A stretch of 61,323 bases of DNA, from contig CAZAJO010000007.1 of NCBI GenBank assembly GCA_964485575.1, forward strand, positions 1-61,323, given 5' to 3'. The notes under the pieces are model-generated. The model was not told the origin of the DNA, searched no databases, and worked only from the letters and a program-made list of their open reading frames with translations. This DNA comes from an uncultured Gammaproteobacteria bacterium (GTDB lineage: Bacteria > Patescibacteriota > Microgenomatia > Levybacterales > GWA1-39-11). Shown piece by piece: positions 4,389 through 27,813 of this stretch (its first letter is position 1; each line of letters begins with the position of its first letter). A program made the translations under genes and the position numbers.

Positions 4389-4434
4389 TTAGTAGTTAGT
4401 AGTTAGTAGTTAGTAGTTAGTAGTTAGTAGTTAG
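4386..4434 (+). repeat. Heptanucleotide microsatellite (TAGTTAG)x7, starting at the dcd stop codon
   Basis: Seven perfect 7-nt units read directly, giving TAG stops in all three frames, followed by an A-run. Confidence 0.95.
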
Positions 4435-4473
4435 TAAAAAAACTATCAACTATTAACTTTTAAATAATAGATA

Positions 4474-5544
4474 TTAGAGTGCTAGCAAGAAGATTCCGGC
4501 AAGTACTACGATAAGTATTCCACCAATAACTCCAAATGTCTGAGCCAATCCGCCTGGTTTTGCGATGGTTGGCGTTGCAGTTGGGATATTTGTAGCTGTA
4601 GGTGTATTGGTAGCAGTAGCTACAGCAACTGTTGGGGATGGAGTTGGGGTAGGCGAAGGGGTTGGAGTGTTTGTAGGTGTAGGAGTTGGTTGCTGTGTGA
4701 TCACAATTACCGTTGGGGTTGGAGTTATTGGCGTTGTAGGCGTGGGACTTGGTGTTGGCGTAGGGGTGTTGGTAGGAGTTGGTGTTGGCGTCCTGGTAGG
4801 TGTAGGGGTTGGAGTATTTGTGGGTAGCGTAACGACGGTAGGGGTGACCGTTGTTGTTGATCCGCCAGCTGGCGGAGTTGTTGTAGTTGGAGTTGGTACT
4901 TCAGTTACTGATGGAGTGGGGGTTTGGGTGATCTCTGCATCCAATGTCGGTCCAAAGTCAGCAGTCCACCACCAATTTTGGCCATTTGAGTCCTGATGAC
5001 GTGCAATTCCAATGGCACGGTCAGAAGGAGTTTTCATCCCTTCGCGATGCGCATAGGTACAATTGCCGCTGCTGTCAGGATCGCACCCGTCCCTCCATGC
5101 TACAAAAACTGTTTGTGCAAGACCATTCCCTGTGACAGCCGCATTCTCGCTAGCTTGTCCTGGATAACCAAAAAAAGTAGCACGTTGTGCGGGATTTCTA
5201 TTGAGTGAGTCGATGTGACTCAATTTATGTAGTCTTGCCATGTCCTCAGCCATCCATGCAGCCGCTTTTGTGAGTGATTTTGAAGGTTTTAAAGGTTGGA
5301 GATTGAATGTAGCTCTATATTCATTAATTATTCTTACAAAGTTCCATTCTTCCTGGTCAAGCATCACATCTGTTGGAGTTGGAGTGATGGTTGTTGATGG
5401 AGTTGCAGTAACTGTTGGGGTTCCTGTTTCAGTTCCGCTTGCGCGCTGACGGTTATCCTGGTTTTGCTTTACAAGAAATGTGGTGATGCCTATTGCAGCC
5501 AACACAAAAACAATCGCTCCTATGAGGATGAATTTTTTCTTCAC
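4474..5544 (-). CDS. Surface protein with CAP/SCP (PR-1/YkwD-like) domain, PT-rich linkers and a C-terminal hydrophobic helix
   Basis: 356 aa with GTG start. N-terminal TM, then a CAP-like core (EEWNFVRIINEYRA...HKLSHIDS...ENAAV...AWRDG...). A long (T/P)n linker follows, and the C-terminus is KPGGLAQTFGVIGGILIVVLAGIFLLAL. Confidence 0.75.
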   Translation of the reverse strand: MKKKFILIGAIVFVLAAIGITTFLVKQNQDNRQRASGTETGTPTVTATPSTTITPTPTDVMLDQEEWNFVRIINEYRATFNLQPLKPSKSLTKAAAWMAEDMARLHKLSHIDSLNRNPAQRATFFGYPGQASENAAVTGNGLAQTVFVAWRDGCDPDSSGNCTYAHREGMKTPSDRAIGIARHQDSNGQNWWWTADFGPTLDAEITQTPTPSVTEVPTPTTTTPPAGGSTTTVTPTVVTLPTNTPTPTPTRTPTPTPTNTPTPTPSPTPTTPITPTPTVIVITQQPTPTPTNTPTPSPTPTPSPTVAVATATNTPTATNIPTATPTIAKPGGLAQTFGVIGGILIVVLAGIFLLAL

Positions 5545-5688
5545 AATTCATCTTAGCAAGCTATCCGGGTCCTGTCACTCCTCACCCCCATTTGCGCTCC
5601 TTCTCGCCCGCTCTAAATATCGAATATTCATAGTGATCGTTTGCTCGAAGTTCTCAATGGGGGTCCCCCAGTTGTGCCACCCGAAAAG

Positions 5689-5717
5689 TTGGAATATATG
5701 CCTATTTCTGGTAAACT
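5689..5717 (+). promoter_or_regulatory. Sigma70-like promoter TTGGAA-N17-TAAACT upstream of tRNA-Cys
   Basis: TTGGAA at 5689-5694 and TAAACT at 5712-5717, 17 nt before the tRNA 5' end. Confidence 0.5.
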
Positions 5718-5734
5718 CAAGCCTACGACCGTAA

Positions 5735-5806
5735 GGCGCGGTGGCGAAGTGGTAACGCGGGAGTCTGCAAAACTTTTATGCGAGGGTTCGATTCCCTTCC
5801 GCGCCT
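5735..5806 (+). tRNA. tRNA-Cys (anticodon GCA)
   Basis: Acceptor GGCGCGG/CCGCGCC, anticodon stem GGAGT/ACTTT with loop CTGCAAA, T arm GAGGG-TTCGATT-CCCTT. 72 nt, no encoded CCA. Confidence 0.9.
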
Positions 5807-5946
5807 CATGAGTGAGAAATATAAATACATAGAACCTCTTAAAAAGGGGGTTGCTGTGACTGAACTTATTACAAAAACAGTCTATAAATCGATAGAACCA
5901 CGGGTGAAAAGAAGAATGATAAGAAATGTGGCAAAACTTCTGAGAA

Positions 5947-6225
5947 TTACATAACTTTCGTTTCAAATATGGTTGGAGATACAGTGCTCGTAGGTGTTGG
6001 CTCTAGTGTTGGAGTTGGAGTGGGCGTAAGCGGAGCTTGCCCCTGTGCAGGGGTGGGTGTTTTGACAACAGATGTCGGCAGAACTAGTGTGGGAGTTGGT
6101 TCTGAGGCCTGTTGCCTTGTATCTTGTTGCTGGCTCATTTGAGAAATTGTAAGTGGAAGTATAAGAAGGGCAAGAGCAAGGGCTCCCACTGGTAAAAGGC
6201 TGGAATAATTCCTTTTTTTAGGCAT
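5947..6225 (-). CDS. Small membrane-anchored PT-rich protein
   Basis: Start moved to the internal ATG at 6225 (MPKKRNYSSLLPVGALALALLILPL...). GGAGGA lies ~6 nt upstream, and the start mirrors the MPKKTT start of the next gene. Confidence 0.55.
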   Translation of the reverse strand: MPKKRNYSSLLPVGALALALLILPLTISQMSQQQDTRQQASEPTPTLVLPTSVVKTPTPAQGQAPLTPTPTPTLEPTPTSTVSPTIFETKVM

Positions 6226-6331: not shown

Positions 6332-6946
6332 TTAGCGTCCACCGATTGTAGGTGAAGCAACCGGCTGACTGACAACTATCTGTAATGGAGTGCTGATGTT
6401 AAGAACCGATGCTTGGGAGCTAAATGTGGTCACAGCAGATTTTGGTAGGAACGTAATTTGTGAAAAAGTTGCCCCTGAGAATTTATTTACTGTGAAACCC
6501 AATGTTGCAATTGATCCTGAGCCTGTTTTTTCAGAATCTGTATTTGAAACTGCTATCGCGTAAGAAATTCTTCCTTGAGCAGAGTCGACGTTATTTATGA
6601 GAACGACTGGATTTGTACCAAAAAATGGATTTCTAAGAGCAGGGGTTAGAGTGACATTGGTCAAAACTTTTGGGTCATAGGACAGTTCTATCTGAGCACC
6701 ACTAACAGGTTTTCCATTAGTGTTGATCATAATATCAATTACTTGTGCCGTTGAACTTTTTGAAACGTCGACTGGATTAGTTGAAAATGACAAATCCGCA
6801 TAGGCTTTAACAACAACCGGAGATGGAGTTGGAGGAGTAGAGTTGGTATTTGTCTGAAGGGATTGATCTGATCTGACTGCTAAATAAATCAGGACACCAG
6901 TGATGATAGCTAGAATGACAATGAGTATGGTTGTTTTTTTAGGCAT
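6332..6946 (-). CDS. Membrane-anchored cohesin-like module protein
   Basis: 204 aa. N-terminal TM, then a beta-rich module (VIDIMINTNGKPVSGAQIELSYDPKVL...GRISYAIAV...GSIATLGFTV). The same pattern occurs in 7012-8304 and 15233-15925. Confidence 0.6.
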   Translation of the reverse strand: MPKKTTILIVILAIITGVLIYLAVRSDQSLQTNTNSTPPTPSPVVVKAYADLSFSTNPVDVSKSSTAQVIDIMINTNGKPVSGAQIELSYDPKVLTNVTLTPALRNPFFGTNPVVLINNVDSAQGRISYAIAVSNTDSEKTGSGSIATLGFTVNKFSGATFSQITFLPKSAVTTFSSQASVLNISTPLQIVVSQPVASPTIGGR

Positions 6947-6976
6947 ATAGAGAGTTATTAATAATATTATGGCATA

Positions 6977-7002
6977 TTAACTATCAACTTTTAACTATCA
7001 AC
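6977..7002. repeat. Direct repeat TTAACTATCAAC x2 (2-nt spacer); the core AACTATCAAC also occurs at 4441-4450
   Basis: Read directly. All three copies lie just 3' of minus-strand genes for PT-rich secreted proteins. Confidence 0.85.
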
Positions 7003-7011
7003 TATTGGTTG

Positions 7012-8304
7012 CTAGTCCCCGTTTCTGATATAAAATCCACGGGACAAAATATTAGCGTCTATGTCATCACCTTTGACAACTCCATCATCATTAAAGTCTG
7101 CCTTTTGAGCAACTGCAGTTGTGCAAGCCGCCTGTCCACGATAACATGCCTGGAACAGATTATAGTCGAGAATATCTAGGGTATTATCAGAAGTATTATT
7201 AGGTCCGGTCAAATCTCCAGAAACTAATTCTACAGCAGGTACAGTATTGTCAGGAGACAATTTGTTAATAGTAACAATACCAGGTGTACGTTTGTATAGT
7301 GTATTATCCATCTTAATTTTGACAATGTAAGAACCACTCTGAGTAGCTATCGAAGAGCCTAGACTTATATATCCATCATACCTTCCTGTTGTTGTGCTAT
7401 ACGTCAATACCCCTGTCTTTTCTGTAGTTACTGGAGTGTTTGATGAATCAAGAACAATTGCAGTAGCGACCCTTGTCGCTCTATTAGGTGCATTCTTTTC
7501 TCCCAGGTTAGTTTTAGTACCAATTCCAGGTAAAGCTAAAGAAACCTTAAGTCCTGTTTGGTCGCTGCCTATTGTTGGGATTGGGATAGGAGTCGCGGTT
7601 GGAAGTGGGGTAGGGGCGGTGGTTGGCGTTGGACTTGGAGTCGGTGTATTTGTAGGTGTTGGTGATGTAGCAACAGCTTGCGTTGGACTTGGGGCAGTTG
7701 TTGTGGTTACGGTTGGAGTAGCTGAGGAGTCAATTGGTGTTGTTATAGTGTAGGTCCCGATTATTCCATTGCTATTGGTAATAGGAACATACGTCGAGTA
7801 GGTCGCAGCTGTTGCTTTTGTTGTTGAATCCAGAAAAATCTTTGATTCCCCTGCAGCTAAGGCGGTGAATTTAAAAGTAATGACATTCAAATTATTTCCA
7901 GTGACTTTTGGATTAAGATTCGTATTGATCATTGTTGCCGCATATTTGCCGGCTCCCACTGGGGCATTGTAGATGATTTTGAGTGCAGTATCTTGTTTTA
8001 TAATGGTTGGTGCCGAAAGCTTTGCTGTATCATATCCCAACAAGAATTGAAGTGCGCCTATATCTTCATTGGGAGCAGTATTGAGTAAGAGACTAACTTC
8101 AAAAGTAGAACCGACAACAATTGGTGTTGAATTTGATTGTGGACTGAAATTCAAAGAAATTGCAGGGGCTGTGTCAGCACGTTGTCTGACGTCTTGCTGT
8201 TTGAGCACTTGATTGATAACAAATGGTAATGAGAGTGCCAGGGCAATAACTAGACCAACCATCAATTTCGGTTTACTTCTAAATATCGTCTTTATTTTTT
8301 CCAT
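7012..8304 (-). CDS. Secreted protein: cohesin-like module, PT linker, Ig-like middle region, dockerin-like C-terminus
   Basis: 430 aa with an N-terminal anchor. The cohesin-like block is FEVSLLLNTAPNEDIGALQFLLGYDTAKL...ITFKFTAL. The C-terminal two-segment Ca-loop pattern is SDNTLDILDYNLF plus ADFNDDGVVKGDDIDANIL (D-x-N-x-D-G-x5-D). Confidence 0.65.
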   Translation of the reverse strand: MEKIKTIFRSKPKLMVGLVIALALSLPFVINQVLKQQDVRQRADTAPAISLNFSPQSNSTPIVVGSTFEVSLLLNTAPNEDIGALQFLLGYDTAKLSAPTIIKQDTALKIIYNAPVGAGKYAATMINTNLNPKVTGNNLNVITFKFTALAAGESKIFLDSTTKATAATYSTYVPITNSNGIIGTYTITTPIDSSATPTVTTTTAPSPTQAVATSPTPTNTPTPSPTPTTAPTPLPTATPIPIPTIGSDQTGLKVSLALPGIGTKTNLGEKNAPNRATRVATAIVLDSSNTPVTTEKTGVLTYSTTTGRYDGYISLGSSIATQSGSYIVKIKMDNTLYKRTPGIVTINKLSPDNTVPAVELVSGDLTGPNNTSDNTLDILDYNLFQACYRGQAACTTAVAQKADFNDDGVVKGDDIDANILSRGFYIRNGD

Positions 8305-8314
8305 ATTTTATTAA

Positions 8315-9448
8315 TCAGTTATTGTCTACTTTGTCGGTTTGCTGACGGTCTGGATTTGGGATTGGTGGGCTCGTTGGTGGTGGTACATGAGTTGGTGATG
8401 GAATTGGTGTAGTTTCCCGCGTATCAATAGGTGGGGTTTGTGAAACAGGACTATTTGCTGTACGGAGGCCGTAATTTATATCTTTCCAAACCTGAAAGTC
8501 CAAAATGTTGACAGTGTTGTCTCCTGGAACAAAACATGAGGTTAAGGTTGTATTTACTTGATGAGTGTATTCTTTAAGCCACAATTCATAATCTAATCTA
8601 TTTATGTACCCATCTTTTACTGGATCACAGGATAATTGTTGTGGTGTTGAGGTTGGGGTAATAGATGGAGCGGAAGGTGGGCAAGTTTTATGAGTAGAGC
8701 AAAAATTCTGTGCTTCAAAGTCTAGTCTAAATGTATCCGTGCACTGGAAAGAGCTTGTAAATGTTTTTTGGGTTCCATCATTACAGGTAACTGTTATTGA
8801 TTTTGCTTGAGAAGAGCGGAAACAACCAGTTCTATCATAGGTCTTTGCCATGATACCGTTGGAATTACAGTTTGAAGTTGTTGGGGTTGGTCCATTGGCA
8901 GTTCCACCTTCAGTTGAGGTTGGTGTTGGTGTTCTTGTTGGGGTTGGGTTTGTTTGAGCGACGGTGGGCGTGGCCGTGGGTAATGGTTTGTTGACGCATG
9001 TATTACTACCCTTTAGGTTTGAGGGTGTTAGAACGTCACAGTAGTTTGTCGAACATTGAGAATTTTCACTACACCCACACCCGTTTGCTTTATAAGTAGC
9101 AACACTGCAATTTTGGCAAACTGCAAACCCAGATGCATAAACTGATGTTAGTCCTGTACAGCAAGCAATCTGTTGTGTCGGATCAGGGCTTTGTCCTTGA
9201 TATGCACACTCAGCACGATAGGGACGTGACCCTGTACAATACTGAGTACTTTCCAGAGCACCCGGTCCTGTGCATACACCCTGCTGCGTGCCCATAGTGT
9301 TCGCACTTGGTGGTTGCTCAACGCAGCACCTTGTATTCCCACCACAGGCGCCGGTGGTTGTACAGGTCTGTACTTGAGCTTGCGACTGAGCAACAGAAAA
9401 TACAAAAAAGAGGACAAAAAACAAGAAGACTAACAATTTCTTTCCCAT
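8315..9448 (-). CDS. Secreted Cys-rich protein (24 Cys) with dockerin-like segments and a Pro-rich tail
   Basis: Start moved to ATG 9448, giving the signal peptide MGKKLLVFLFFVLFFVFSVAQSQA. Dockerin-like segments are DPVKDGYINRLDYELWL and GDNTVNILDFQVW, the latter shared with 7012-8304. Confidence 0.6.
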   Translation of the reverse strand: MGKKLLVFLFFVLFFVFSVAQSQAQVQTCTTTGACGGNTRCCVEQPPSANTMGTQQGVCTGPGALESTQYCTGSRPYRAECAYQGQSPDPTQQIACCTGLTSVYASGFAVCQNCSVATYKANGCGCSENSQCSTNYCDVLTPSNLKGSNTCVNKPLPTATPTVAQTNPTPTRTPTPTSTEGGTANGPTPTTSNCNSNGIMAKTYDRTGCFRSSQAKSITVTCNDGTQKTFTSSFQCTDTFRLDFEAQNFCSTHKTCPPSAPSITPTSTPQQLSCDPVKDGYINRLDYELWLKEYTHQVNTTLTSCFVPGDNTVNILDFQVWKDINYGLRTANSPVSQTPPIDTRETTPIPSPTHVPPPTSPPIPNPDRQQTDKVDNN

Positions 9449-12187: not shown

Positions 12188-13006
12188 TCAGTACTGTATC
12201 GTAGTACATGCTTCACTGATATCTCCCTCACCACGATCCCCATCATGAAGTATGATCTGTGCTCTATAGACGTGACCGTCAGTAAGACCGAGGTTCTTTA
12301 CATCCCATATCATCTCTGCGCCAAAGCTTGGTTCAAATCTCGGATTAACACCTTCAAATTTAACGTTAGAATCTTTTGGAAATGGATCCGCTCCTGGGCC
12401 TAGATCAAGCGCGTTGGCAGGGAAGGGTGCGGTATTGGCGTTGAGTGCTTTCCACGCTCCGAAAATTTCATCGGGCTTGTAGGCTTTTCCACCACTTTGA
12501 GCATCTCCTGACGTGTTGTTGGGATCAGTTGTAATATCACTGATAAATATCGCAGGGAAGAAAGGAAAACCATTAGAATCTTTTGCAGTTTCATCCCCAA
12601 CAACCGGATTTACGGCGTGGTCCTGGGAGCTTTTAGGTGGTGTGACTGCGCCTTTTCCTAAAGTAATAGGCCACTCGTCTTGGTAAAAGACTTTTATCTT
12701 TCCATCTTTTTGTACGATTGTCCCAGGCGCTGGATCTATTGCCCACAATATATATGGTTCTGAAATGCCTTGTATCTTTCCATTTCCACAGTCAAGAGTG
12801 GGAGGAACAAACCTTTTGAATTTAAGAGTTTTTAGCTGTAGATTTTGATTTGCCGGTCCAGAATCTGTGCTATCCTGCCCGTACTGTTCATTTGGATTTG
12901 TGGCAGATTTATTTACCATAGCGCCACTAGTCATAAGAATTCCAAACGCGATAACAATAAAAAGTAGTGGAATTAAAATCTGTCCCGATTGTTTTGTTCT
13001 AAGCAT
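12188..13006 (-). CDS. Secreted protein with TadE/TadG-like N-terminus
   Basis: 272 aa. The N-terminus MLRTKQSGQILIPLLFIVIAFGILMTSG resembles Tad_N pseudopilin-like leaders. The remainder matches no family I recognise. Confidence 0.6.
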   Translation of the reverse strand: MLRTKQSGQILIPLLFIVIAFGILMTSGAMVNKSATNPNEQYGQDSTDSGPANQNLQLKTLKFKRFVPPTLDCGNGKIQGISEPYILWAIDPAPGTIVQKDGKIKVFYQDEWPITLGKGAVTPPKSSQDHAVNPVVGDETAKDSNGFPFFPAIFISDITTDPNNTSGDAQSGGKAYKPDEIFGAWKALNANTAPFPANALDLGPGADPFPKDSNVKFEGVNPRFEPSFGAEMIWDVKNLGLTDGHVYRAQIILHDGDRGEGDISEACTTIQY

Positions 13007-13022
13007 ATTCTTTTGTTTTTTT

Positions 13023-13049
13023 TGTCTAATTCCTGTCGATGACGCCTCC
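13023..13049 (-). pseudogene. Remnant of a third paralog 3' end (...GGVIDRN*)
   Basis: 27 nt identical to 14217-14243, which is the stop region of the gene at 14220-15200. No ORF remains upstream. Confidence 0.5.
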
Positions 13050-13105
13050 CTGCCCCAAGAGCACTTGCCATTTCATGGTGGCGCATTCTAATTTGTGGGT
13101 CGTTG

Positions 13106-14131
13106 TCATCTGTCGATGACACCTCCCCATTCTACGGCTGTAAAACCTGCACGTTTTGGTGGAGTAGACGGGTTAAACAATTTAGTTTCGAATTTTTCAT
13201 CAACCCCTTTAAAGTATGCAATAAATTGGATAAAAACGTTAGGGGTAGGCACTATCTCGACATGATCAGTACGCTCCTTCTCTTCTTTGTCAAGAATTGA
13301 GAAGAAGATGTATCTCTTGTTAAGAGCCAGGAGGCGGGGAGTCCAATATTCAATAAACTCATTTGATTCCATTAAATCCAATCCTAGCCTTGTTGTTTGA
13401 GTCCTGAGTTGTTCAACTAGGTTTTTGCTTTCTATGAAAATTCCGCTGTCTGGGGCTTTGAGTTCTTGTTGCGAACTTTCATAATAAAGCTCCCTATAAT
13501 AATTGTTTTTGTAATACAAAATTCCACCAGGCATTGCAAGTACCCCAAACCAACCATTATTGTATTCTGGAATACTCTCAACTATGTTGCCAGAGACAGT
13601 CACATCTACATAGGTAGATTTTTCCGGATAGAGATAGATAACGGGTTTCCCGATACAATAGTAACCATCTCCCTCTTTTGCATAAGCCTTGCACAGGCTG
13701 TCATTGTATGGAAATTCATTTGGATGGCCATTTATTATAACGGCTTTTCCGTTGATACAAAGAAATGTAAAGTTGGGACATTTACATACGCTGGGATCAG
13801 TCTTCTTACCACTATCTGATATGCACATGGTTGATGTTGGGACTGGCGTTTCTGTTGTCGTTCCTGTTGGTGTTACTGTTGTCGGAGGGGCTGTGGGGGA
13901 TTGGAAATCCAAATCCACCATATGAAGTCCTTCTTTGTAGTCTAATTTTTTAGCATCTGTGGCTGTGTAAACGTTAGTGTCTGTAACGGTGGACTTGGGG
14001 TGTTTAAAAAATCCAGTGAAGTTCATGATCACCAGAAGGACGAGTCCCATGAAAAAAAGTGAAAGAGCAGAAAAACCCTTCTGCCACCTAGAAGACATAA
14101 GACAGTAGACAAAAGACAGAAGTCTAACCAT
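13106..14131 (-). CDS. Membrane-anchored surface protein, paralog A (conserved KPVIYLYP... C-terminal domain)
   Basis: 341 aa: TM, PT linker, Cys-containing region, then a ~190-aa domain highly similar to 14220-15200. Confidence 0.7.
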   Translation of the reverse strand: MVRLLSFVYCLMSSRWQKGFSALSLFFMGLVLLVIMNFTGFFKHPKSTVTDTNVYTATDAKKLDYKEGLHMVDLDFQSPTAPPTTVTPTGTTTETPVPTSTMCISDSGKKTDPSVCKCPNFTFLCINGKAVIINGHPNEFPYNDSLCKAYAKEGDGYYCIGKPVIYLYPEKSTYVDVTVSGNIVESIPEYNNGWFGVLAMPGGILYYKNNYYRELYYESSQQELKAPDSGIFIESKNLVEQLRTQTTRLGLDLMESNEFIEYWTPRLLALNKRYIFFSILDKEEKERTDHVEIVPTPNVFIQFIAYFKGVDEKFETKLFNPSTPPKRAGFTAVEWGGVIDR

Positions 14132-14219
14132 ATTAATAGTATAGAGCTTTTATCTTTTTACTTCTAGCTAGCGTGATGCGCCAAGCTCTGCTTATTGTCT
14201 AATGACTTTTGTCTAGTGT

Positions 14220-15200
14220 CTAATTCCTGTCGATGACGCCTCCCCATTCTACGGCTGTAAACCCGATGCGTCTTGGTGGAGTAGAAGGGTTAAACAATTT
14301 AATTTCGAATTTTTCATCAGCCCCTTTAAAGTATGCGATAAATTCAATAAATGTATCTGGTTTTGGGTTAATTTCAACATGATCGGTTCGCTCCTTTTCT
14401 TCCTTATCAAGAATAGAAAACAGAATATATTTTTTGTTAAGAGCTTGTAGTCGAGGTGTCCAGTAGTCAACAAATTCTTGGGCTTCAATGTCAATTAGTC
14501 CAAGTTTTAATACCTGGTTTTTCAATTCCTGTCTTAATGTTGTTGTTTCTAGAAAGATTCCATTATCTGGAGGATTTAATTCTTCTTGCGAACTTTCATA
14601 ATAGAGTTCCCTATAATAATTGTTTTTGTAAAACAACACTCCGCCGGGCATCGCCAATACCCCAAACCATCCATTATTATATTCCGGAATGCTTTCAACG
14701 ATGTTTCCAGACACAGTTACATCAACGTACGTAGGTTTTGTGGGATACAGATAAATTACAGGTTTTCCCATGCAGAACCATTTGCAGGATGAGTCCTCAG
14801 ATGCTCGAGCTTGGCACTGAATTGTATCTCCCATACATACAGGATTTGCTAAAGGAGGAAAATTACCATTGCAATAGAGACCGAGTGGAAGATTTGGGTC
14901 GCACATACATCCAACACGTTCTCCATAGTGAGGACAATAATTGCTTGTTGGAGTTGGAGTTCTTGTAACTCCCGGTAGGGTTGGTACGGGTATTGATGTA
15001 GGCGTTGGAGTTGGAGATTCAAAATCAATATCCACCATGTGAAGGCCCGTACTGTCAATTTGTTTGCTTCCGGAAGCATTGTAGACATTAGTATCTGTAA
15101 TTGGTGATTTTGGATGTTTGAAAAATCCGGTAAAGTTCATGATGACAAGTAGAATAAGCCCCATGAAAAAAAGAGACAAAGCAGAAAAACCTTTGGACAT
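14220..15200 (-). CDS. Membrane-anchored surface protein, paralog B
   Basis: 326 aa. It shares the N-terminus KGFSALSLFFMGL.LLVIMNFTGFFKHPKS and the block VTVSGNIVESIPEYNNGWFGVLAMPGG with paralog A. Confidence 0.7.
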   Translation of the reverse strand: MSKGFSALSLFFMGLILLVIMNFTGFFKHPKSPITDTNVYNASGSKQIDSTGLHMVDIDFESPTPTPTSIPVPTLPGVTRTPTPTSNYCPHYGERVGCMCDPNLPLGLYCNGNFPPLANPVCMGDTIQCQARASEDSSCKWFCMGKPVIYLYPTKPTYVDVTVSGNIVESIPEYNNGWFGVLAMPGGVLFYKNNYYRELYYESSQEELNPPDNGIFLETTTLRQELKNQVLKLGLIDIEAQEFVDYWTPRLQALNKKYILFSILDKEEKERTDHVEINPKPDTFIEFIAYFKGADEKFEIKLFNPSTPPRRIGFTAVEWGGVIDRN

Positions 15201-15232: not shown

Positions 15233-15925
15233 CTATTTATAAACTACTGGGGGTTGCTCTGTAGGAAAGACTCCATTTATTGGGTAGTTTACAATAAGAG
15301 TACTTTTCTGAAGTACGATAACTTTGCCTCCCTCACGTGAGATAAGTGCCGTTGATGGGGAAAAAGCGATTGATGTCTTCGTTATATTGGTACTTTTAGG
15401 GATAAAAGTAAGAACAGCTACTTTTCCTAGACCTTTTTGTAGAGGGGTGGTAGAAGCCATCTGAAGAGGCAATGTTATGACACCATTTACCGTGTCATTA
15501 TGAGAAGATGACGGTTCAAAGGCGAGAGAAACTGTCGAATTTTTGTCTTTGAACTGGGTAAGCGTTACATTTCCGACAACATTTGGATTGTAGGATATCG
15601 AAATATTAGCTCCCGAAATCTCTTTGCCCCAGGTATTAACGTACACATCAATAGTTTGGACTTTCCCCAAAGGAGCATTTATAGTTGTCGGGTCAAAATA
15701 AACAGTCGCTTCAGGTGAAGTAAGATTGACAGTCGGAGTAGGGCTGGAGAAGATCCCATTCTTCCCGCCTTTTCCAGTAATTAATGTCACGACAAAAATA
15801 ATAGCTAAGAAAATAACTATTGCTCCAGCCAAAAGAATAACCTTATTCTTAAGAAGTTTTTGCAAGCCTGTTTCAGGGTTCTGATTTGTGAGTTCTGAGT
15901 TCTGAGTTATTTCATTATTTTCCAT
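15233..15925 (-). CDS. Membrane-anchored cohesin-like module protein
   Basis: 230 aa. TM helix, then VQTIDVYVNTWGKEISGANISISYNPNVVGNVTL...GKVAVLTFIPKS. Confidence 0.6.
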   Translation of the reverse strand: MENNEITQNSELTNQNPETGLQKLLKNKVILLAGAIVIFLAIIFVVTLITGKGGKNGIFSSPTPTVNLTSPEATVYFDPTTINAPLGKVQTIDVYVNTWGKEISGANISISYNPNVVGNVTLTQFKDKNSTVSLAFEPSSSHNDTVNGVITLPLQMASTTPLQKGLGKVAVLTFIPKSTNITKTSIAFSPSTALISREGGKVIVLQKSTLIVNYPINGVFPTEQPPVVYK

Positions 15926-15926
15926 A

Positions 15927-18677
15927 TTAATTTGACGTACAACAAGCTCCTCTTACGGTGCCATATGCAGCCGCACAATCTGCATTTCCAACAGGTCTAG
16001 CATTTGGATAAGAGCCAAAACATGATGCTTGGCAACTATTTACTCTACCATCGCCATTGTCCAGTGGACAACCCGTTGCTGCAGGCCCTTTTGTAGGGGC
16101 AGGAGTAGTAGTTGTTCCAGGAGCACTTGTGACAACAGGGGAAGGAGTAGAGCAGCTAGAAAGAGGGGTATTACCTCTTCTGTAGCATTGTGGGGTGTCC
16201 GGATTCCAGTCAGCACATGCTGTATTTGCAACACTATCATTAGTGGGTCCATATCCCACTTGGCACGCGTTTGCTGCTACGCATAAATGATTTCCGTCAT
16301 TTGGACATCCTTTTGAGACAGGTGTCGGTGTAGAGTATGGAGTAGATCCTGTACAGATTGCGGGATCAATACTCTTTGGCATAAGTGATTTTGTCCGGTC
16401 GCACCAAAGGTTGGTTGCAGGGAATGGCACACAGAAATATTTGGATGGATCATCAAGGGATGGCTCTGGATTGTGTGAAGAAGCGCAACCACATGCGGAA
16501 GCAGTTGTACAAGGACATCCAGTCCCTTTAAATCCAGACGTGCAATTATTGGAAGCGCCTGGGGTAGGAGTAGGAGTTGGTTTGCCAGCAGGGTACTGGC
16601 AGGTGAATACGCCGTTAAGGTCCGGATCAAGGCATCTGGCTCCTGCTGGATAATCAGAACAGTCTGTGTCTCCACCCTTATAGCAAACATCCCCAAGACC
16701 TAATTTCCTATAACACCCCTGTCCAGCATCAACACAAGTTCCGGCTACATCGCAAAATCTTTTGTTATCAGGACAACAAGTAGTAAGAGTACTGCTATTT
16801 TGGGTGTTTGAAGAATTGTAGTTGAAAGTACAGGTGTAATTTGGTCCATGGACTTTTGCACAATCAACAACTGCCCCTCCAAGGCCAGCTTTACATACCG
16901 GGGTTACAGACGCATCAATCCATGGATAACTATCGCATGATTTATCAGCAGATGGGACAAGCACATCAACATAATTAGTTCCATCAGCGCCTGTTTTTGT
17001 GCAGCGGTAGCGGTCAGCATAGACTCTTCCGGGTTGAGCAGTCTTAGGATCGGTAGCACCAATGAGCCTATGGTCACAAGTAGGGCCTTCGTATCCATTT
17101 GGTTTGCTAAATACTGTATCAACATTTCCTTTTCCAGACTGTGAACACACATCACTTGTAGGAGCGGGGCTTGTCGAAGAACCAGGAGTAGTAGTGCCAC
17201 CACCGGAATTAGGTGAACCCAATCCACTACGTTTTGAATAAATACTGTCGTTTCTAAAGCAACTGCCACCCTTGCTTCCACAGCTATAAAGACCAGTGTT
17301 TGTGGTAGGAGTGCTATAAGTAGTTGAAGGGTCCCCGCTTGGTGTTTCGGCAGAACTCAAGCATTTAAAGGCAGAGTCATTATTGTCATCCAATTCACAC
17401 GAATTTCTATTCGGATCTGTATTACCCGATGGACCTGATGCTGCCGTGCACACAAATTCACTGCTGGTACTAGGTTTTGTACAACTTTTGCTCTGGCAGG
17501 CATCGCCGTGTCCAGAGTCACAATAAGAACCATTAGCCAGTGGCTTAGTAGCACATACATGGTGTCCTAACGAAGGGTTTGGTATACATGCTCCTCCCTC
17601 GCATAGTTCTGGTTTTAGAGCTTCACATTGATCACCGTTCTTTTTAAGTGCTGTGCTTTCTGGTGTCTTTTTGACGCAATTGACATCAGGACAAACCAAT
17701 CCGTCTTCACATACACTATCAAAATAACAGAAATCTCCTTCCTTCATGCTTTTTTTAAATTGGCAAGTTAATGTGCCGGATCTTGGATCGTAGCCAATAC
17801 AATAACCTTGTCTACAGGCCAGATCATCGCTACATGGTTCACCCAATCCCTGGCTTCTTGGATCGATACATGTATGGCGTCCTATTGCTACTATCCCTCC
17901 ACAAAGACCAGACACGCAAGCAGTATTTTCAAAACACGCCCCTCCATTCGGTATACTTCTTGGGAGAACGCAAAGGCGCTGCTTAGCATAATTTTCGCCA
18001 CCACAAACCTCATTGCCATTGCATTCAGAAGTTTCTTTACAAACTTTCAGCGAACTACCACTTGAAGGTGGTGATTCTTGAGGTGTTGAAGATATTTTCG
18101 GGGGAGGAGTTTGGTTTTTGTAATAGCAGGTTCCAGAATTATGATCACATGACTGGTCAGAGTAGCACCCAGCGCCTGCGTGAGTGTCATTACAAGCTTC
18201 TCCCCATCGCGTATCATCTTGGCTCACACACTTAGGTTGTTCATTGTTGCCATACCACCCTGCATACCAAAAACATTTATTTGCAGTGCTATTACAAGTG
18301 TTTGGATCGCCAATTGAACCGCATGATTTAGGTCTACATATGTTGTCGTCACATGACAAATCTGCGTTACAATCTGGCGTATGACCACAAGTTCCACCAA
18401 TTCCGCTTGTGTGTGCCCTGCAAATGTTATTGATACAGACATTCGGACTTCCAGCACATTCTCCATCGTCATAGCACCAGCAAGTGGTATTGTCATCATG
18501 CTTATTTGGAACACGTGGATTTGTTTTATCTAATTCTATATCTTCCGGGTTCCCCGTTCCTGGAGTGCACACATAAGTTCCTCTTGTATAGTTTGCATAG
18601 CCAGGACCTGTCGTTAGAAGAAATAAGAAAAATATGGTCACAAAAAACGAAAATAAATAAGGCCATTTGGCTTTCAT
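15927..18677 (-). CDS. Giant secreted hyper-cysteine-rich repeat protein (82 Cys)
   Basis: Start moved to ATG 18677, giving the signal-like MKAKWPYLFSFFVTIFFLFLLTTGPGYA. At least 9 copies of a 4-Cys module G-x-x-C-x(4-8)-C-x(3-6)-C-x(4-14)-C. Confidence 0.75.
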   Translation of the reverse strand: MKAKWPYLFSFFVTIFFLFLLTTGPGYANYTRGTYVCTPGTGNPEDIELDKTNPRVPNKHDDNTTCWCYDDGECAGSPNVCINNICRAHTSGIGGTCGHTPDCNADLSCDDNICRPKSCGSIGDPNTCNSTANKCFWYAGWYGNNEQPKCVSQDDTRWGEACNDTHAGAGCYSDQSCDHNSGTCYYKNQTPPPKISSTPQESPPSSGSSLKVCKETSECNGNEVCGGENYAKQRLCVLPRSIPNGGACFENTACVSGLCGGIVAIGRHTCIDPRSQGLGEPCSDDLACRQGYCIGYDPRSGTLTCQFKKSMKEGDFCYFDSVCEDGLVCPDVNCVKKTPESTALKKNGDQCEALKPELCEGGACIPNPSLGHHVCATKPLANGSYCDSGHGDACQSKSCTKPSTSSEFVCTAASGPSGNTDPNRNSCELDDNNDSAFKCLSSAETPSGDPSTTYSTPTTNTGLYSCGSKGGSCFRNDSIYSKRSGLGSPNSGGGTTTPGSSTSPAPTSDVCSQSGKGNVDTVFSKPNGYEGPTCDHRLIGATDPKTAQPGRVYADRYRCTKTGADGTNYVDVLVPSADKSCDSYPWIDASVTPVCKAGLGGAVVDCAKVHGPNYTCTFNYNSSNTQNSSTLTTCCPDNKRFCDVAGTCVDAGQGCYRKLGLGDVCYKGGDTDCSDYPAGARCLDPDLNGVFTCQYPAGKPTPTPTPGASNNCTSGFKGTGCPCTTASACGCASSHNPEPSLDDPSKYFCVPFPATNLWCDRTKSLMPKSIDPAICTGSTPYSTPTPVSKGCPNDGNHLCVAANACQVGYGPTNDSVANTACADWNPDTPQCYRRGNTPLSSCSTPSPVVTSAPGTTTTPAPTKGPAATGCPLDNGDGRVNSCQASCFGSYPNARPVGNADCAAAYGTVRGACCTSN

Positions 18678-18719: not shown

Positions 18720-19196
18720 TTATGTACAGCCTGTTGGATTTCCGTTGTATTTTTTAAGAACTGTTCCTGAGGATAGGACTCTTATTTCCCAACTCCCCGT
18801 TCCAAATCCAATATCATTAGGTAAAGTAAGTGGATAATTTGTGATAGGAGAGGTAAAAGGTTGAGGAGTACCTATTTCTTTTGATCCAAGCCATAACTCT
18901 ACAGTTCCATTAGTAGGTCCTTCAATTTTTACATTACCTGTCACAAAGGCAGTTTTTCCTGGTTGGCAACTACCCAATGTAACCGTTATATTCCATGCAC
19001 CTGCAGTTGGAGTTGAGGAGCCTGGGGTGGTTGTTGCAAGAGGGTCTGTTGGTGGAGTTGGCTCATCCGTTACTGAAGTGGGTTCATTCCCTGTAAAAAG
19101 TGAGCCCCCACCGCCAGAAAGCATTACTGCAAAAATAATTACAACAATCACAAGAATTATGTAGACTGTTGACTGACCTCTTTGAAGGTTGGGCAT
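18720..19196 (-). CDS. Small secreted protein with TadE/TadG-like N-terminus
   Basis: 158 aa: MPNLQRGQSTVYIILVIVVIIFAVML..., a PT stretch, then a beta-rich domain with 2 Cys. Confidence 0.6.
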   Translation of the reverse strand: MPNLQRGQSTVYIILVIVVIIFAVMLSGGGGSLFTGNEPTSVTDEPTPPTDPLATTTPGSSTPTAGAWNITVTLGSCQPGKTAFVTGNVKIEGPTNGTVELWLGSKEIGTPQPFTSPITNYPLTLPNDIGFGTGSWEIRVLSSGTVLKKYNGNPTGCT

Positions 19197-19201
19197 AATA
19201 T

Positions 19202-20134
19202 TTACAGGTCGCTGCAGATTCTTTGTGCGATTTCTTTGTAGATCTGTTTTAACTTTGTAGGGTCTGGAGTCTCATAAAAATTTGCTGGGTCGCTTACTAT
19301 ATTTGTCATCATATTGCGCATATCGGGGAGGAAGAATATATCACTTTCATCATTTTTGTCATAGATGGCTATAGCGTAGACATTAATACCGGCGTCCCTT
19401 ATCTCTTTGGCGACACTTGGTAACTGTGTAGGATCTTGGGTGAGAGCAAAGCATCTGTTTTGGAATTTGCGCCCGCTTGGACACGAAGGTGCTTCCGATT
19501 GATTCTCAGGAATTCCGTCAGAAAGAAGAATCATTGCAAAATCATTTTCAGGGAATTTTTTTTGAGCAGCAATAATTTTGTCTTTCATAAGTAAAAATGC
19601 TGCCCGAGTATGAGTTGATCCCCCGGGAGGGTTGTAGCTTCTTATTGCTGAAGCTACTTGACCTTTTACATCTTGATATCGTGAGAAGGGAACATCTTCA
19701 GATACCTCGCGTGGTTCACTACTAAAAGAAACCATTCCTATCACTGACTGGCCTCCAAGCCCAGTCGTAAAGGCAGTTAAGGCATCTTGCATGTTAACAA
19801 CTTTTGCTCCTCTCATTGATCCCGAGCGGTCGATGATAAGTCCAACTGCAGCTTTACTGGCGCACTCTTTGAATTTGATCGTCTTTAGTTGAAGTCTTGA
19901 TCCATATGGAGCAGGGGTTTCAAGAACCAATTCTAATTCTCCAGTTTCCCCGGGATCAGAGAGGACAGATTTTGGTGTGACCCCGCGGGAGAGTAACACA
20001 CCCATTCCAATTGCCAATGCGATAAAGGCAACAGTGAACATGGTCCCAGGTCCTGTAAGACTCATCCCAAATCTTCCACCAGAAGAGGTGCCATTACCAA
20101 ATATTCCACCACGCTTCCTATTGTTTGCCATCAT
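19202..20134 (-). CDS. Membrane-anchored von Willebrand factor A (vWA) domain protein
   Basis: 310 aa. MIDAS residues are DRSGS...GGSTH...LSDG, after one TM helix (MFTVAFIALAIGMGVLL). Confidence 0.8.
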   Translation of the reverse strand: MMANNRKRGGIFGNGTSSGGRFGMSLTGPGTMFTVAFIALAIGMGVLLSRGVTPKSVLSDPGETGELELVLETPAPYGSRLQLKTIKFKECASKAAVGLIIDRSGSMRGAKVVNMQDALTAFTTGLGGQSVIGMVSFSSEPREVSEDVPFSRYQDVKGQVASAIRSYNPPGGSTHTRAAFLLMKDKIIAAQKKFPENDFAMILLSDGIPENQSEAPSCPSGRKFQNRCFALTQDPTQLPSVAKEIRDAGINVYAIAIYDKNDESDIFFLPDMRNMMTNIVSDPANFYETPDPTKLKQIYKEIAQRICSDL

Positions 20135-20187
20135 TTTATTTTAGATTGTAAATTTGAATGATGTCAAATTGAGCGTTTAGTTGGAGG

Positions 20188-20218: not shown

Positions 20219-20581
20219 ATGATAAATTCTTATAAAGAATTAATTGTTTGGAAAAAAGCTATGGATTTATCCAGACTTATCTATAAAGAAACCAAACTAT
20301 TTCCTAAAGATGAAATGTATGGGTTAACATCACAAATTAGAAGAGCTTCTGTTTCAATCCCGTCTAATATAGCAGAAGGTTACGGGCGAAAATCGCGGAA
20401 AGAGTATCTTCAATTCTATTCAATTGCATATGGTTCGGTTCTAGAACTCGAAACTCAGATTATCCTCGCGCATGACTTCGGCTATATTTTAGATGGTCCA
20501 TTTACAGCAATCGAAAAACAAGCAGATGAAGTTTCAAGAATGCTACACTCCATGATCCTGAAACTAAACGCTAAACCCTAA
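20219..20581 (+). CDS. Four-helix-bundle protein (23S rRNA intervening-sequence protein family)
   Basis: 120 aa. ...LIVWKKAMDL...IYK.T..FPK.E.YGLTSQIRRA.VSIPSNIAEGYGR....E..QF..IA.GS..ELETQ is the classic family pattern. TATAAT at 20206-20211 lies 7 nt before the ATG. Confidence 0.85.
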   Translation: MINSYKELIVWKKAMDLSRLIYKETKLFPKDEMYGLTSQIRRASVSIPSNIAEGYGRKSRKEYLQFYSIAYGSVLELETQIILAHDFGYILDGPFTAIEKQADEVSRMLHSMILKLNAKP

Positions 20582-25950: not shown

Positions 25951-26697
25951 TCAAGAGTTTCCGCCCTTTTTCCATGGGGCGCTTTGTAATACAACTCCAT
26001 ACACATCTGTTGTTGGGTCAATATCAAGAAGTTCCAGTTCCTCCTCAGATGGATTACGGTCCTGAAATTGGACAAACGGAATATCAGTGATAATTGCAAA
26101 TGGAGTTTGGTTTGCTCCTTCACCCATGACAACAACTGCTCCAGCAGATATCCCATCCATCACACCAACTTGAGTCATTTTCAAAATTCTCCCAAAGATG
26201 TCAGGGGTTCCAACCTGATTGTTGAGTGCTAAAAAACCACTATGTGCTATTCCAATTCCAGTTATGCCATAGCGAAGTGGTGTGGTTTTACTATCAGTTA
26301 TAAGTACTCCAATATTTTTTAAATCATGTTTTTGTACAAGATGTTCCCTTATTCTGTTGGCGCTTTCTTGAGGATCTTTCGGCCATAGAACATAACCTTC
26401 TTTAGTATTAGATTCATCGATACCTGCATTGACTGCCAAGACATTATTTTTCAAAGTTACTGTTACGTGAAATGTATTTGTTTCTTTCGGAAGATAATAA
26501 TCTGCTTGAGATATGACAAGCTCTTCCTTTTCAATTGATCCAATAGGAACTGTGTTCCCTTCGCAAATAGCAATTATCTTACTTGTTACAACAAGAATAG
26601 AATTTTCTGAAAGAGTTGGTACATATTGGTCAATAATTTTTAAAATGTCTTTGTCTTCGCGAGTTATCTTGTGGGTTTTTACAGTTACAATATTCAT
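25951..26697 (-). CDS. CofE-like (F420-0:gamma-glutamyl ligase family) protein
   Basis: 248 aa. VVTSKIIAICEG, VNAGIDESN, GVLITDSKTTPLRYGITGIGIAHSG, and GR.L..T.V...D.I...A..VMGEG....P.AII match CofE family blocks. Confidence 0.75.
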   Translation of the reverse strand: MNIVTVKTHKITREDKDILKIIDQYVPTLSENSILVVTSKIIAICEGNTVPIGSIEKEELVISQADYYLPKETNTFHVTVTLKNNVLAVNAGIDESNTKEGYVLWPKDPQESANRIREHLVQKHDLKNIGVLITDSKTTPLRYGITGIGIAHSGFLALNNQVGTPDIFGRILKMTQVGVMDGISAGAVVVMGEGANQTPFAIITDIPFVQFQDRNPSEEELELLDIDPTTDVYGVVLQSAPWKKGGNS

Positions 26698-26709
26698 ACT
26701 CGGATTGTA

Positions 26710-27813
26710 TCAAAATCGTGGGACTAATATTTTTTTTGTATCGATAAGACCATACTTATCCAGTATCGTTGAAAGGATTGGGGATTTGGTAGCGTACAGT
26801 AATTTTCTCGGATATTTTTCGGCACGCAAATTCTCAATTTCATGGTATCCCAATAAATAGCACGCGTCTTTTGGAAATCCTCCTGGACGGGATGTGTCAG
26901 TCATGCCTCTTTTGACCCGGTATGTCATGATGAAAGCCCGTTGTGGATTTAGATTTTCAAGTAATAACTCATATATCTCAGAAAAACTTTTATGCAGATT
27001 TCTGACAGCCTTTATTCTGTAGTAGTACATCTCAAAAGCACTGGGAGTAATTTTTCGGGTAGTTATTTCATTATATATAGCAAGTCCCTCCCCATACAGA
27101 TTTTGGTTCCCATATTTCGTAAATTCAGCAAGGGCAGTATGGGAGTTTTTTGTGTTCTCAGTCTGAAGGACATGAGATTCAATCTCGTGTACGACAAGCC
27201 TATCAACATTGCACTCAAATCTTTTTATCTCGCTACCTATATTAATAAGATTGTATCCAACATTGATCATGTGGGGGGCAAAATCATTAACATTAATCTT
27301 AAAACTATCAATATTATATCTGGCTAGCGTTTTTTCAAATCTTTTCTTTATATCTTCTGCATTCTTTAATTCATGTTTTATATGTAATTTAAATTCCACA
27401 TTTGGAGTATTTGTGAGAAGTAAGTCAAGTCTATCTGTTCCCCAATCAAAAAGGTTATGAACATTCTCTGAGAATTCTTCCTGCCCAACAGATAATTTAG
27501 TTTTATAAAGTTCTATCTGATCGTCTAGAAATTCCAGAACGTGCTGCTTTAAATCCCCTGGAATTTCGAGTGCATCAACCCTTAATTTATAATCATCAAT
27601 TTCAGAAGCAAAATCGGGAAGATCTTGGGTTCTATATACGAATTGCGGATTATATGATGGGTCTGCAAAAAACTTTTCTTTTTCCTCGGCATAATTTAAC
27701 GGGGTGAGAGATGTGTTTCCAAGGCGCAGGGTTTTTTTAATTGTTATGATTTCCTTTGCTATAGTTTCTAATTTTTCAAGATCGGAAATAGAATGCTTAT
27801 TTGATGATTTCAT
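26710..27813 (-). CDS. DUF1704 / QEGLA-motif metallopeptidase-like protein (MATCAP-type carboxypeptidase family)
   Basis: 367 aa with an HExxxH-type site VVHEIESHVLQ and a downstream GEGLAIYNE (QEGLA-like) motif. Confidence 0.7.
   Translation of the reverse strand: MKSSNKHSISDLEKLETIAKEIITIKKTLRLGNTSLTPLNYAEEKEKFFADPSYNPQFVYRTQDLPDFASEIDDYKLRVDALEIPGDLKQHVLEFLDDQIELYKTKLSVGQEEFSENVHNLFDWGTDRLDLLLTNTPNVEFKLHIKHELKNAEDIKKRFEKTLARYNIDSFKINVNDFAPHMINVGYNLINIGSEIKRFECNVDRLVVHEIESHVLQTENTKNSHTALAEFTKYGNQNLYGEGLAIYNEITTRKITPSAFEMYYYRIKAVRNLHKSFSEIYELLLENLNPQRAFIMTYRVKRGMTDTSRPGGFPKDACYLLGYHEIENLRAEKYPRKLLYATKSPILSTILDKYGLIDTKKILVPRF

Follow-up and report, generated by a model that had tools for sequence, protein, structure and literature searches.

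This report concerns a gene for an exported, cysteine-rich protein at positions 15927-18677 (minus strand) of contig CAZAJO010000007.1 (GenBank assembly GCA_964485575.1), together with the cluster of surface-protein genes in which it resides. The whole stretch of DNA analyzed, hereafter called the window, is 61,323 nucleotides long. Its closest genomes are 'Candidatus Levyibacteriota' (Microgenomates, within the candidate phyla radiation or CPR) and bulk-labelled metagenome-assembled genomes, with RpsB, EF-Ts and SHMT proteins that are 80-96% identical. The open reading frame (ORF) of the gene spans 917 codons including the stop and encodes 916 amino acids (aa). The first-pass annotation, made from the sequence alone, had called this ORF correctly but had counted the stop as a residue. 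Translation begins at an ATG (MKAKWPYLF), and the sole alternative start is a TTG located 14 codons upstream. The ATG is supported by the homologues, which open in a similar way, with a short basic stretch ahead of a hydrophobic helix. The gene and its product are organized as follows, where P and L numbers are our handles for the homologous proteins and related loci recovered.

15927..18677, minus strand: Cys-rich protein gene, defined by its ORF and translation and intact in about 20 relatives
18594..18677, minus strand: Sec-type signal peptide, residues 1-28 (MKAK, a hydrophobic core and GYA/NY; ..GPGYA), read from the sequence
18060..18593, minus strand: variable N-terminal Cys region, residues 29-206, with 18 Cys, degenerate four-Cys units, a CxxxxxxCFWYAGW unit and a terminal P/S/T linker
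17430..18059, minus strand: six tandem four-Cys modules of 34-36 aa each, residues 207-416, defined by hidden Markov model (HMM), alignment and periodicity
15930..17429, minus strand: conserved C-terminal half, residues 417-916, with 40 Cys at irregular spacing and several P/T linkers, ending in ...GACCTSN
16578..16703, minus strand: isolated degenerate four-Cys unit, residues 659-700, LGLGDVCYKGGDTDCSDYPAGARC...TC, with an independent E value (i-E) of 0.012 against the module HMM; kept in P0003, L008 and L016

As a whole, the 916-aa protein matches no Pfam family above threshold, no NCBIfam family at E ≤ 10 and no PDB sequence. The first-pass annotation had allowed that the gene might prove to be disrupted in close relatives, which was not borne out.

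Cysteine parity and disulfide bonding

Cysteine accounts for 82 of the 916 residues (8.95%), in agreement with the earlier count of 82, about 9% and an even number. Across the window's 58 other ORFs the average is ~0.7% Cys, and the protein is therefore enriched about 13-fold (binomial tail about 1e-62). Its composition is also high in G, S, T, P, D and N, and includes 13 His residues. An N-terminus of the signal-peptide kind is present both in this protein and in all of its relatives; the cleavage site was placed by reading the sequence rather than by a dedicated predictor.

We counted the cysteines of 23 proteins, comprising the family described below and positional orthologues that are too divergent for BLAST, with totals that range from 42 to 82. 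The total is even in 20 of the 23. Each of the three odd cases (P0003, P0128 and L009) carries exactly one Cys within the core of its signal peptide, P0126 carries two there, and the predicted mature count is even in all 23 proteins. These sequences are related, and so no formal probability is attached to this result; their Cys numbers differ widely. The 916-aa protein is best read from its sequence as a secreted chain whose mature cysteines are all disulfide-paired, for which the strongest available evidence is the combination of even mature parity, the lack of CxxC motifs and the scarcity of His.

Alternatively, the cysteines might bind metals, as in an extracellular metallothionein-like or Fe/Zn/Cu-sequestering protein, or might act as a redox buffer. 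The very high Cys content would suit such a role, as would a habitat that may be anoxic and the fact that no thiol oxidase is seen in the window. However, the dense CxC/CxxC clusters of metallothionein-like proteins are not present, with zero CxxC, three CxC and two CC motifs among the 82 Cys, and the 13 His are few. The spacing of the cysteines is of the disulfide mini-domain type, the repeated module models as a hairpin mini-protein of the disulfide-stabilized class (see below), and metal sites are not expected to give strictly even mature counts across 23 proteins of differing Cys number. We consider a metal-binding or redox-buffering function very improbable relative to complete disulfide pairing.

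The first-pass annotation also stated that no Dsb/VKOR-type oxidoreductase is encoded in the window. Consistent with this statement, Pfam scans of most of the larger window ORFs reveal no thioredoxin, DsbA, DsbB or VKOR family, and the only CxxC-bearing ORFs are those for RecR, a rhodanese C-terminal domain, a zinc-ribbon protein, a C-methyltransferase and the 377-aa Cys-rich protein described below. The lack of such genes in a 61-kb window says little. An MdbA-like oxidoreductase, often encoded next to VKOR, is reported to be a CPR-enriched family (10.1101/335083). A tRNA-Cys(GCA) gene at 5735-5807 (plus strand) lies about 2.5 kb from a gene for a 24-Cys protein and about 10 kb from the gene for the 82-Cys protein, which is probably a coincidence.

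A tandem four-cysteine module

The six array copies share the consensus S-x3-G-x2-C-x5-C-x2-G-x-C-x-G-x8-C-x2-K-x-S, in which four Cys are invariant. Each copy scores an i-E of 1e-15 to 1e-18 against the module HMM, and the distance from any Cys to the fourth Cys that follows it is 34-36 residues across the array. The pattern noticed in the first pass is real, since the regular expression G..C.{4,8}C.{3,6}C.{4,14}C matches the protein seven times, versus 0.67 ± 0.82 times in 2000 composition-preserving shuffles of the 916-aa sequence, none of which (0/2000) reaches seven matches. The estimate of at least nine copies holds for only six periodic ones, because the remaining three are degenerate look-alikes outside the array (GGTC.. 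at residue 94, GEAC.. at 159 and GDVC.. at 662) with i-E values of 3.8, 4 and 0.012, respectively. These pattern-only matches fall within residues 66-184 and 659-700. TRF detects no tandem repeat at the DNA level; the array is therefore old, and we reject the idea that it arose through recent duplication of DNA.

Neither the array, nor its single modules, nor their homologues match a Pfam or NCBIfam family above threshold, and the module HMM search that had been proposed in the first pass likewise reached no characterized repeat family above threshold. The best Pfam matches of the protein both lie on its N-terminal region, off the array, and both fall short of the gathering score: DUF7107 (PF23416; 19.8 bits, E 0.001, gathering score 24.6) and the EB module (PF01683; 8.2 bits, E 3.5, residues 66-187 only, gathering score 24.3). 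Dickkopf_N (PF04706; gathering score 25 bits) gives no match at E ≤ 10 to the whole protein, the array, single modules or homologues, and there is no NCBIfam match at E ≤ 10 to the Myxococcus cysteine-rich repeat TIGR02232. A search with a two-module alignment found nothing, the word index used being unsuited to short divergent repeats.

A profile of 21 modules, run against 1.84 billion representative sequences, recovers 116 proteins at E ≤ 1e-3, most of them carrying the GxxC-x5-C-xSGxC-xn-C unit in tandem. Its nearest matches are otherwise unrelated proteins in which NG-x2-C-x5-C-x-SG-x-C-G..C is repeated in long tandem arrays. Most of these proteins have no Pfam family, and the module-bearing proteins are named at source only as 'hypothetical protein'. 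Among the 114 proteins scanned, Pfam matches include EB (23 proteins), Dickkopf_N (17) and DUF7107 (17). When the profile is expanded to 109 modules, it matches LEAP2 (E 7.5e-4), which is the best PDB profile match of the module, the N-terminal sub-domain of the second cysteine-rich domain (CRD2) of DKK1 (E about 0.02) and Draxin (E 0.022).

AlphaFold2 (AF2) modeling of one module on the 109-module alignment yields a predicted local distance difference test score (pLDDT) of 82.8 and a β-hairpin (strands 19-24 and 27-30) flanked by Cys19 (Cys3) and Cys30 (Cys4). The modeled module therefore has the size (30-40 aa), the four Cys and the placement of the last two on a β-hairpin that characterize hairpin mini-domains. 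All top Foldseek matches are of the knottin/colipase type, including SOTI-III (TM 0.66), hairpinless omega-atracotoxin and colipase (TM 0.71, rmsd 2.2 Å), with an overall range of TM 0.5-0.71 and E ≥ 0.53, as the domain is too small for significance. LEAP2 (2L1Q), hairpinless omega-atracotoxin and SOTI-III have in common with the module a size of about 35 aa, four Cys and the location of Cys3 and Cys4 on a β-hairpin, but they are free peptides, whereas the modules here are concatenated within a 916-aa surface protein. The published hairpin consensus, C-X5-19-C-X2-[GP]-X2-C-X6-19-C, is nearly satisfied, with the G-to-Cys3 interval one residue shorter in the module. As a clue to connectivity we looked for modules lacking a Cys pair, and there are none among 499 aligned modules.

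The resemblance to Dickkopf proteins is confined to a part of their domain. Both the start of DKK1 CRD2 (QEGSVCLRSSDCASGLC) and Draxin can be aligned with the module motif G-x-x-C-x5-C-x-SG-x-C...C, but a Dickkopf CRD has ten Cys in five disulfides, and the bacterial module with its four invariant Cys corresponds to one sub-domain only. Moreover, it sits in a tandem array and has no link to Wnt or LRP biology. Dickkopf_N (PF04706), DIKK1-2-4_C-subdom1, Colipase, EB (PF01683) and DUF7107 (PF23416) are the nearest families, and the window protein reaches the gathering score of none of them. We conclude that the module is a distant, uncurated bacterial relative of the Dickkopf/EB/DUF7107/colipase/knottin class of two-disulfide hairpins, and that it stands outside any curated family.

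The first-pass view that such arrays are uncommon in bacteria was overstated, given the 116 proteins found by the module profile and two publications. A review states that a significant portion of secreted cysteine-rich repeat proteins (SCREPs) are bacterial (PMC6262176), and Peribacteria, which also belong to the CPR, encode large extracellular Cys-rich proteins with 7.2% Cys for which a role in attachment was proposed (PMC4736985; Anantharaman et al. 2016). The 916-aa protein has the SCREP architecture of a signal peptide plus at least two tandem Cys-rich domains (here six). This term is an architectural label and not a homologous family, and in our case the repeats account for only about a quarter of the chain, and some family members do without them. 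One unrelated metagenomic protein (P0014, 625 aa, no Pfam family reported) combines four-Cys modules with a C-terminus that appears by eye to be a double dockerin (GDANCDGSIDVTDYSLWHKEFF ... GKCDGKVDVYDFSLWQKFF), which suggests that similar modules may elsewhere be displayed via cohesin-dockerin pairs.

A conserved C-terminal half in a syntenic gene slot

With the whole 916-aa protein as query, only three relatives are found among 5.8 billion clusters, and a GTDB scan with the full-length alignment found nothing, both of the patterns used having been located in the variable N-terminus. We therefore extended the family via loci recovered from the neighboring VWA gene and with a profile of the C-terminal half. 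This profile (469 positions) finds 14 proteins with no Pfam family and no name, and it scores the window protein at E 9.6e-228 and its relatives at E 1e-26 to 1e-225. In all, about 20 non-redundant members carry the C-terminal half, which is about 470-500 aa long with roughly 40 Cys (the window protein, P0002, P0003, P0120-P0131, L008, L010 and L016), none of which has a Pfam domain or an informative name. The window protein matches the profile over its full length, retains the conserved Cys and has the ...CCTSN end. At identities of 26-69%, 34 of the 40 C-terminal Cys are kept in at least five of six homologues, and no PDB relative of this half was found. As far as we have seen, the family is restricted to a clade of Levyibacteriota-like CPR bacteria. 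Two short elements (listed at window 15930-15970, minus strand) are invariant family-wide, namely a CP-x-DNGDGRVNSC loop (residues 870-886), which resembles half a dockerin or a Ca-binding loop, and the CCTSN end (residues 912-916) with its vicinal Cys pair.

The N-terminal halves behave differently. P0122 is 80% identical to the window protein over residues 468-916 and unrelated to it over residues 1-467, P0003 carries a Cys-free segment in place of the module array, and P0126 has three CFW units, a type of unit found in the variable N-terminal region of the window protein and also in P0130, P0131 and L010. Only the window protein, P0002 and P0004 have the array itself; L008 carries one or two module copies. 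As judged from these alignments, the C-terminal half is the family-defining part, N-terminal halves are swapped even between close relatives, and the array is an accessory, swappable part rather than the core of the protein. The initial description of a disulfide-rich protein built from a tandem module is accordingly upheld by secretion, parity and the hairpin model with regard to the disulfides, but it gave the central place to an accessory array rather than to the conserved C-terminal half.

Given this distribution, we considered whether the mini-domains are nevertheless the active principle and the C-terminal half a mere carrier. The array would then act as an inhibitor with several heads, for instance against proteases, or would serve as the precursor or carrier of knottin-like peptides, antimicrobial or toxic, directed at hosts or competitors. 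The closest neighbors of the module (a trypsin-inhibitor knottin, spider and cone-snail toxins, colipase and the antimicrobial peptide LEAP2) are in keeping with this idea, conserved basic K-x-S junctions separate the modules, and inhibitor or toxin roles are common for tandem secreted Cys-rich repeats (PMC6262176). However, none of these resemblances is statistically strong (Foldseek E ≥ 0.5; DKK1 E about 0.02), and the stretches between modules contain no dibasic or otherwise evident processing sites. The array is also absent from most members, including the closest one, while the gene slot and the C-terminal half are conserved, and the array therefore cannot perform the core function of the family. 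We regard an inhibitor or toxin-precursor function as distinctly unlikely.

Some related loci offer further observations on heads. In L003, a second Cys-rich gene (4141-6087) encodes a right-handed β-helix head (Beta_helix 2.5e-15; NosD), and the C-terminal region of its product is 44% identical to that of the neighboring P0004. A diversity-generating retroelement was considered as the source of head variability and rejected, as the window contains neither a YxDD reverse-transcriptase ORF nor a pair of template/variable repeats. A gene for a 120-aa four-helix-bundle protein (20219-20581, plus strand) lies between the VWA gene and rpsB; its counterpart in the P0126 contig (127 aa) adjoins the cluster and is annotated as 23S_rRNA_IVP / bAvd.

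The Cys-rich gene is accompanied by the following features of its cluster:

20138..20167, minus strand: best promoter-like site, TTGACA-18-TAAAAT, 11/12, just upstream of the VWA gene; a consensus match only
19202..20134, minus strand: membrane-anchored VWA-domain protein (Pfam VWA 1.1e-15), the first gene of the cluster
18720..19196, minus strand: 158-aa protein with the N-terminus ..QRGQS(S/T)xYI followed by a hydrophobic helix; orthologues in all loci
15233..15925, minus strand: 230-aa membrane-anchored cohesin-like protein (Pfam Cohesin E 0.0016, 19 bits)
12188..15200, minus strand: single-anchor proteins of 326 aa, 341 aa and 272 aa, with no Pfam, NCBIfam or PDB match

We infer that the promoter-like site drives an operon. 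The same gene order recurs, between rpsB-tsf and glyA, in every locus with enough flank (about a dozen). It comprises a 272-aa-type gene (sometimes), the VWA gene, a gene for about 110 aa (sometimes), the 158-aa gene, the Cys-rich gene, a cohesin-like gene for about 225 aa, one or two genes for anchored ~340-aa proteins, an oppositely oriented gene for a 200-aa protein, and glyA. One flank is formed by rpsB-tsf-M50-frr-recR, from which the cluster reads divergently. Wherever the upstream flank of the Cys-rich gene was recovered, the VWA orthologue lies there, the 158-aa gene is always directly upstream of the Cys-rich gene, and cohesin-like orthologues are directly downstream in loci mapped with enough flank; in the window, the cohesin-like gene begins 1 nucleotide past the stop codon of the Cys-rich gene. 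Two departures are an inversion of the VWA gene alone in L008 (9929-10867) and the second Cys-rich gene, which precedes the cohesin-like gene, in L003. The slot invariably holds a protein that has a signal peptide, is 563-916 aa long and contains 7.2-9% Cys, and this is so even in L011, L014 and L015, where sequence similarity has disappeared. In L001, an IS200-type Y1 transposase gene (4983-5672) is inserted between the VWA and 158-aa genes.

A core, single-copy, syntenic gene of the clade could also encode a purely structural protein, that is, a rigid, protease-resistant coat component akin to a wall or S-layer protein and devoid of ligand specificity. The G/S/T/P-rich composition and the P/T linkers are typical of wall-associated proteins and so agree with this possibility. 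However, head swapping between close relatives and the presence of a VWA partner fit variable external ligands better than a uniform coat, and searches of the 916-aa protein turned up no SLH, LysM or other domain that binds the wall. A uniform coat function is, in our estimation, unlikely.

Among the partners of the Cys-rich protein, the 158-aa protein has no Pfam, NCBIfam or PDB match, and PDB sequence searches with four of the partners gave no match. The partners have a single N-terminal hydrophobic helix accompanied by the motifs QRGQS(S/T)xYI, KGFSALxLF, LTGPGTxFTxxFI and SGQILIPLLF, and such juxtamembrane motifs are encoded at 18720-19196, 14220-15200, 13106-14131, 12188-13006 and 19202-20134 (all minus strand). 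By eye these conserved motifs resemble class-III / prepilin signals, which we take as no more than a lead; they lack Glu+5 and match no N_methyl model, and a prepilin identity is not supported by Pfam or NCBIfam. Pfam scans of most of the larger window ORFs reveal no genes for pilus machinery. The 326-aa and 341-aa proteins are paralogues (65% identical; N-terminus ..KGFSALSLFF..), encoded by tandem genes (13106-14131 and 14220-15200, minus strand) whose DNA is 75-90% identical in blocks. Each has a short Cys-rich segment (8 and 7 Cys, respectively) after a P/T linker, and their C-terminal domain is faintly similar to the end of a 707-aa protein encoded at 1629-3752.

A separate cluster in the window also combines Cys-rich and cohesin-domain proteins:

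6332..9448, minus strand: genes for a 377-aa, 24-Cys secreted protein and two cohesin-domain proteins; kept in L008, L014 and L015

Both cohesin-domain genes (7012-8304 and 6332-6946, minus strand) pass the Pfam threshold. The first-pass annotation had grouped the product of 8315-9448 with the 916-aa protein on grounds of similar style. Its length of 377 aa and its 24 Cys are as described, but it shares no homology with the 916-aa protein and contains no modules. It does have two dockerin-like C-terminal segments (DPVKDGYINRLDYELWLKEY / GDNTVNILDFQVWKDINY), with a Dockerin_1 match (E 0.01, 16.4 bits) below the gathering score, and the 6332..9448 cluster may represent a cohesin-dockerin display system in a CPR bacterium.

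Elsewhere, the window carries 1285 nucleotides of the 3' part of a 16S rRNA gene, tRNA-Ile and tRNA-Cys genes, a SAM riboswitch and the housekeeping genes of a small genome. Within positions 1-1516, the 16S portion (1-1285) is followed by the tRNA-Ile gene, which lies on the other strand; protein genes come next, with no 23S rRNA gene after the 16S in the window. The SAM (S-box) riboswitch (32750-32854, plus strand) lies between a gene for an MFS transporter and a DNA_alkylation (PF08713) gene about 280 nucleotides downstream, the latter being an unusual downstream gene for this riboswitch class. A membrane-anchored CAP-domain protein with long P/T-coding repeats is encoded at 4474-5544 (minus strand); it matches a CAP family reported to be nearly unique to CPR bacteria (10.1101/335083). 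Finally, at 25951-27813 (minus strand), a gene resembling that for F420-0:gamma-glutamyl ligase adjoins a carboxypeptidase-like gene of the MATCAP family (PF08014), and this pair recurs beside the cluster in related loci.

A proposed role in surface attachment

Our best reading is that the 916-aa protein is a disulfide-stabilized subunit or adhesin of a lineage-specific surface complex, and that it probably helps the cell to attach to something. The analysis establishes the export signal, the conservation and parity of the cysteines, the fold class of the module, the mosaicism of the family and the synteny of its locus; the disulfide chemistry, partner binding, surface retention and adhesion that this reading adds are inferred. 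The explanation as a whole, in which an exported and fully disulfide-paired mosaic is held at the surface via a cluster partner with its head directed outward, is one that we consider moderately probable.

Mechanistically, the chain would be exported through Sec and oxidized outside the membrane by an MdbA/VKOR-type system typical of CPR, which would be encoded elsewhere in the genome. The C-terminal half would then anchor the protein to the cell surface through a partner from the cluster to which it binds, the most plausible one being the cohesin-like product of the abutting gene. The variable, protease-resistant N-terminal half would face outward as the ligand- or host-contacting part, and in the window protein the six two-disulfide β-hairpin modules would form a stalk within it.

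Several observations weigh against this proposal. Many CPR bacteria are thought to inhabit anoxic settings, where extracellular disulfides need explaining, and neither the window nor some 190 kb of related loci shows an oxidoreductase. The AlphaFold check suggested in the first pass gave a confident hairpin for the module, but the whole protein, modeled on an alignment of three sequences, reached a pLDDT of only 33, at which Cys-Cys distances are not visible. The Cys1-Cys3/Cys2-Cys4 pairing of the module is presumed by analogy with LEAP2 and DKK1, and the links of the module to known families are all sub-threshold or transitive. Adhesion has no direct support, its assignment coming from gene context only, and binding to the cohesin-like neighbor is proposed purely from gene adjacency. 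The Cohesin match of the 230-aa protein itself sits below the Pfam gathering score, and the 916-aa protein shows neither a dockerin nor another known anchoring motif. The 230-aa protein is a BLAST paralogue (3e-10) of a 204-aa protein that does pass the Cohesin gathering score. A dockerin in the 916-aa protein was specifically sought and rejected, as neither the whole protein nor its C-terminal 55 aa gives a Pfam match; the only trace is a single DNGDGRVN loop noticed by eye (residues 873-880).

Comparisons with known systems place the disulfide-paired surface protein that we propose in a familiar setting. Its counterparts in kind include the Peribacteria proteins, which are likewise encoded by CPR bacteria and have a signal peptide, 7-9% Cys against a low-Cys background, lengths of hundreds to thousands of residues, no functional annotation and strain-level variability. 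In contrast, they belong to another phylum, average 1,655 aa and occur in a 14-gene cluster, and they are weakly similar to Myxococcus Cys-rich repeats, a similarity that is not seen in the 916-aa protein; this comparison is by description. Cohesin-dockerin display systems and modular vWA adhesins of monoderm surfaces (such as S. sanguinis PilB, PMC8179133) share with our cluster a VWA protein and a cohesin-like anchor among the partners, and the neighboring 6332..9448 cluster pairs cohesin proteins with a weakly dockerin-like Cys-rich protein. The differences are that the 916-aa protein lacks a dockerin, that its partners lack the prepilin G-F-T-L-I-E motif, and that the Pfam scans of window ORFs show no pilus genes.

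The SCREP architecture in bacteria and the Cys-rich surface proteins of CPR are therefore already known in general kind. What is new here is the unannotated C-terminal family, its invariant slot and partners, the swapping of heads, the parity rule and the recognition of the module class. A more ambitious interpretation, which we offer as possible if rather doubtful, is that the cluster constitutes an undescribed, Levyibacteriota-specific attachment apparatus in which exchangeable heads set host or substrate specificity and the 40-Cys C-terminal half is a new docking fold.

CPR bacteria are believed to depend on attachment to other cells in their way of life, but few of the molecules that make this contact are known. 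The locus described here, a core syntenic cluster of exported proteins, is a concrete candidate for such contact, and the combination of a conserved, disulfide-rich C-terminal half with an exchanged head is the pattern expected of a specificity determinant. It adds an unannotated family of about 20 members without Pfam, NCBIfam or PDB relatives, and it documents a widespread, uncurated bacterial relative of the Dickkopf/colipase/knottin two-disulfide mini-domain. Furthermore, the even-Cys rule provides a simple argument, drawn from sequence only, that a CPR lineage invests in extracellular oxidative folding.

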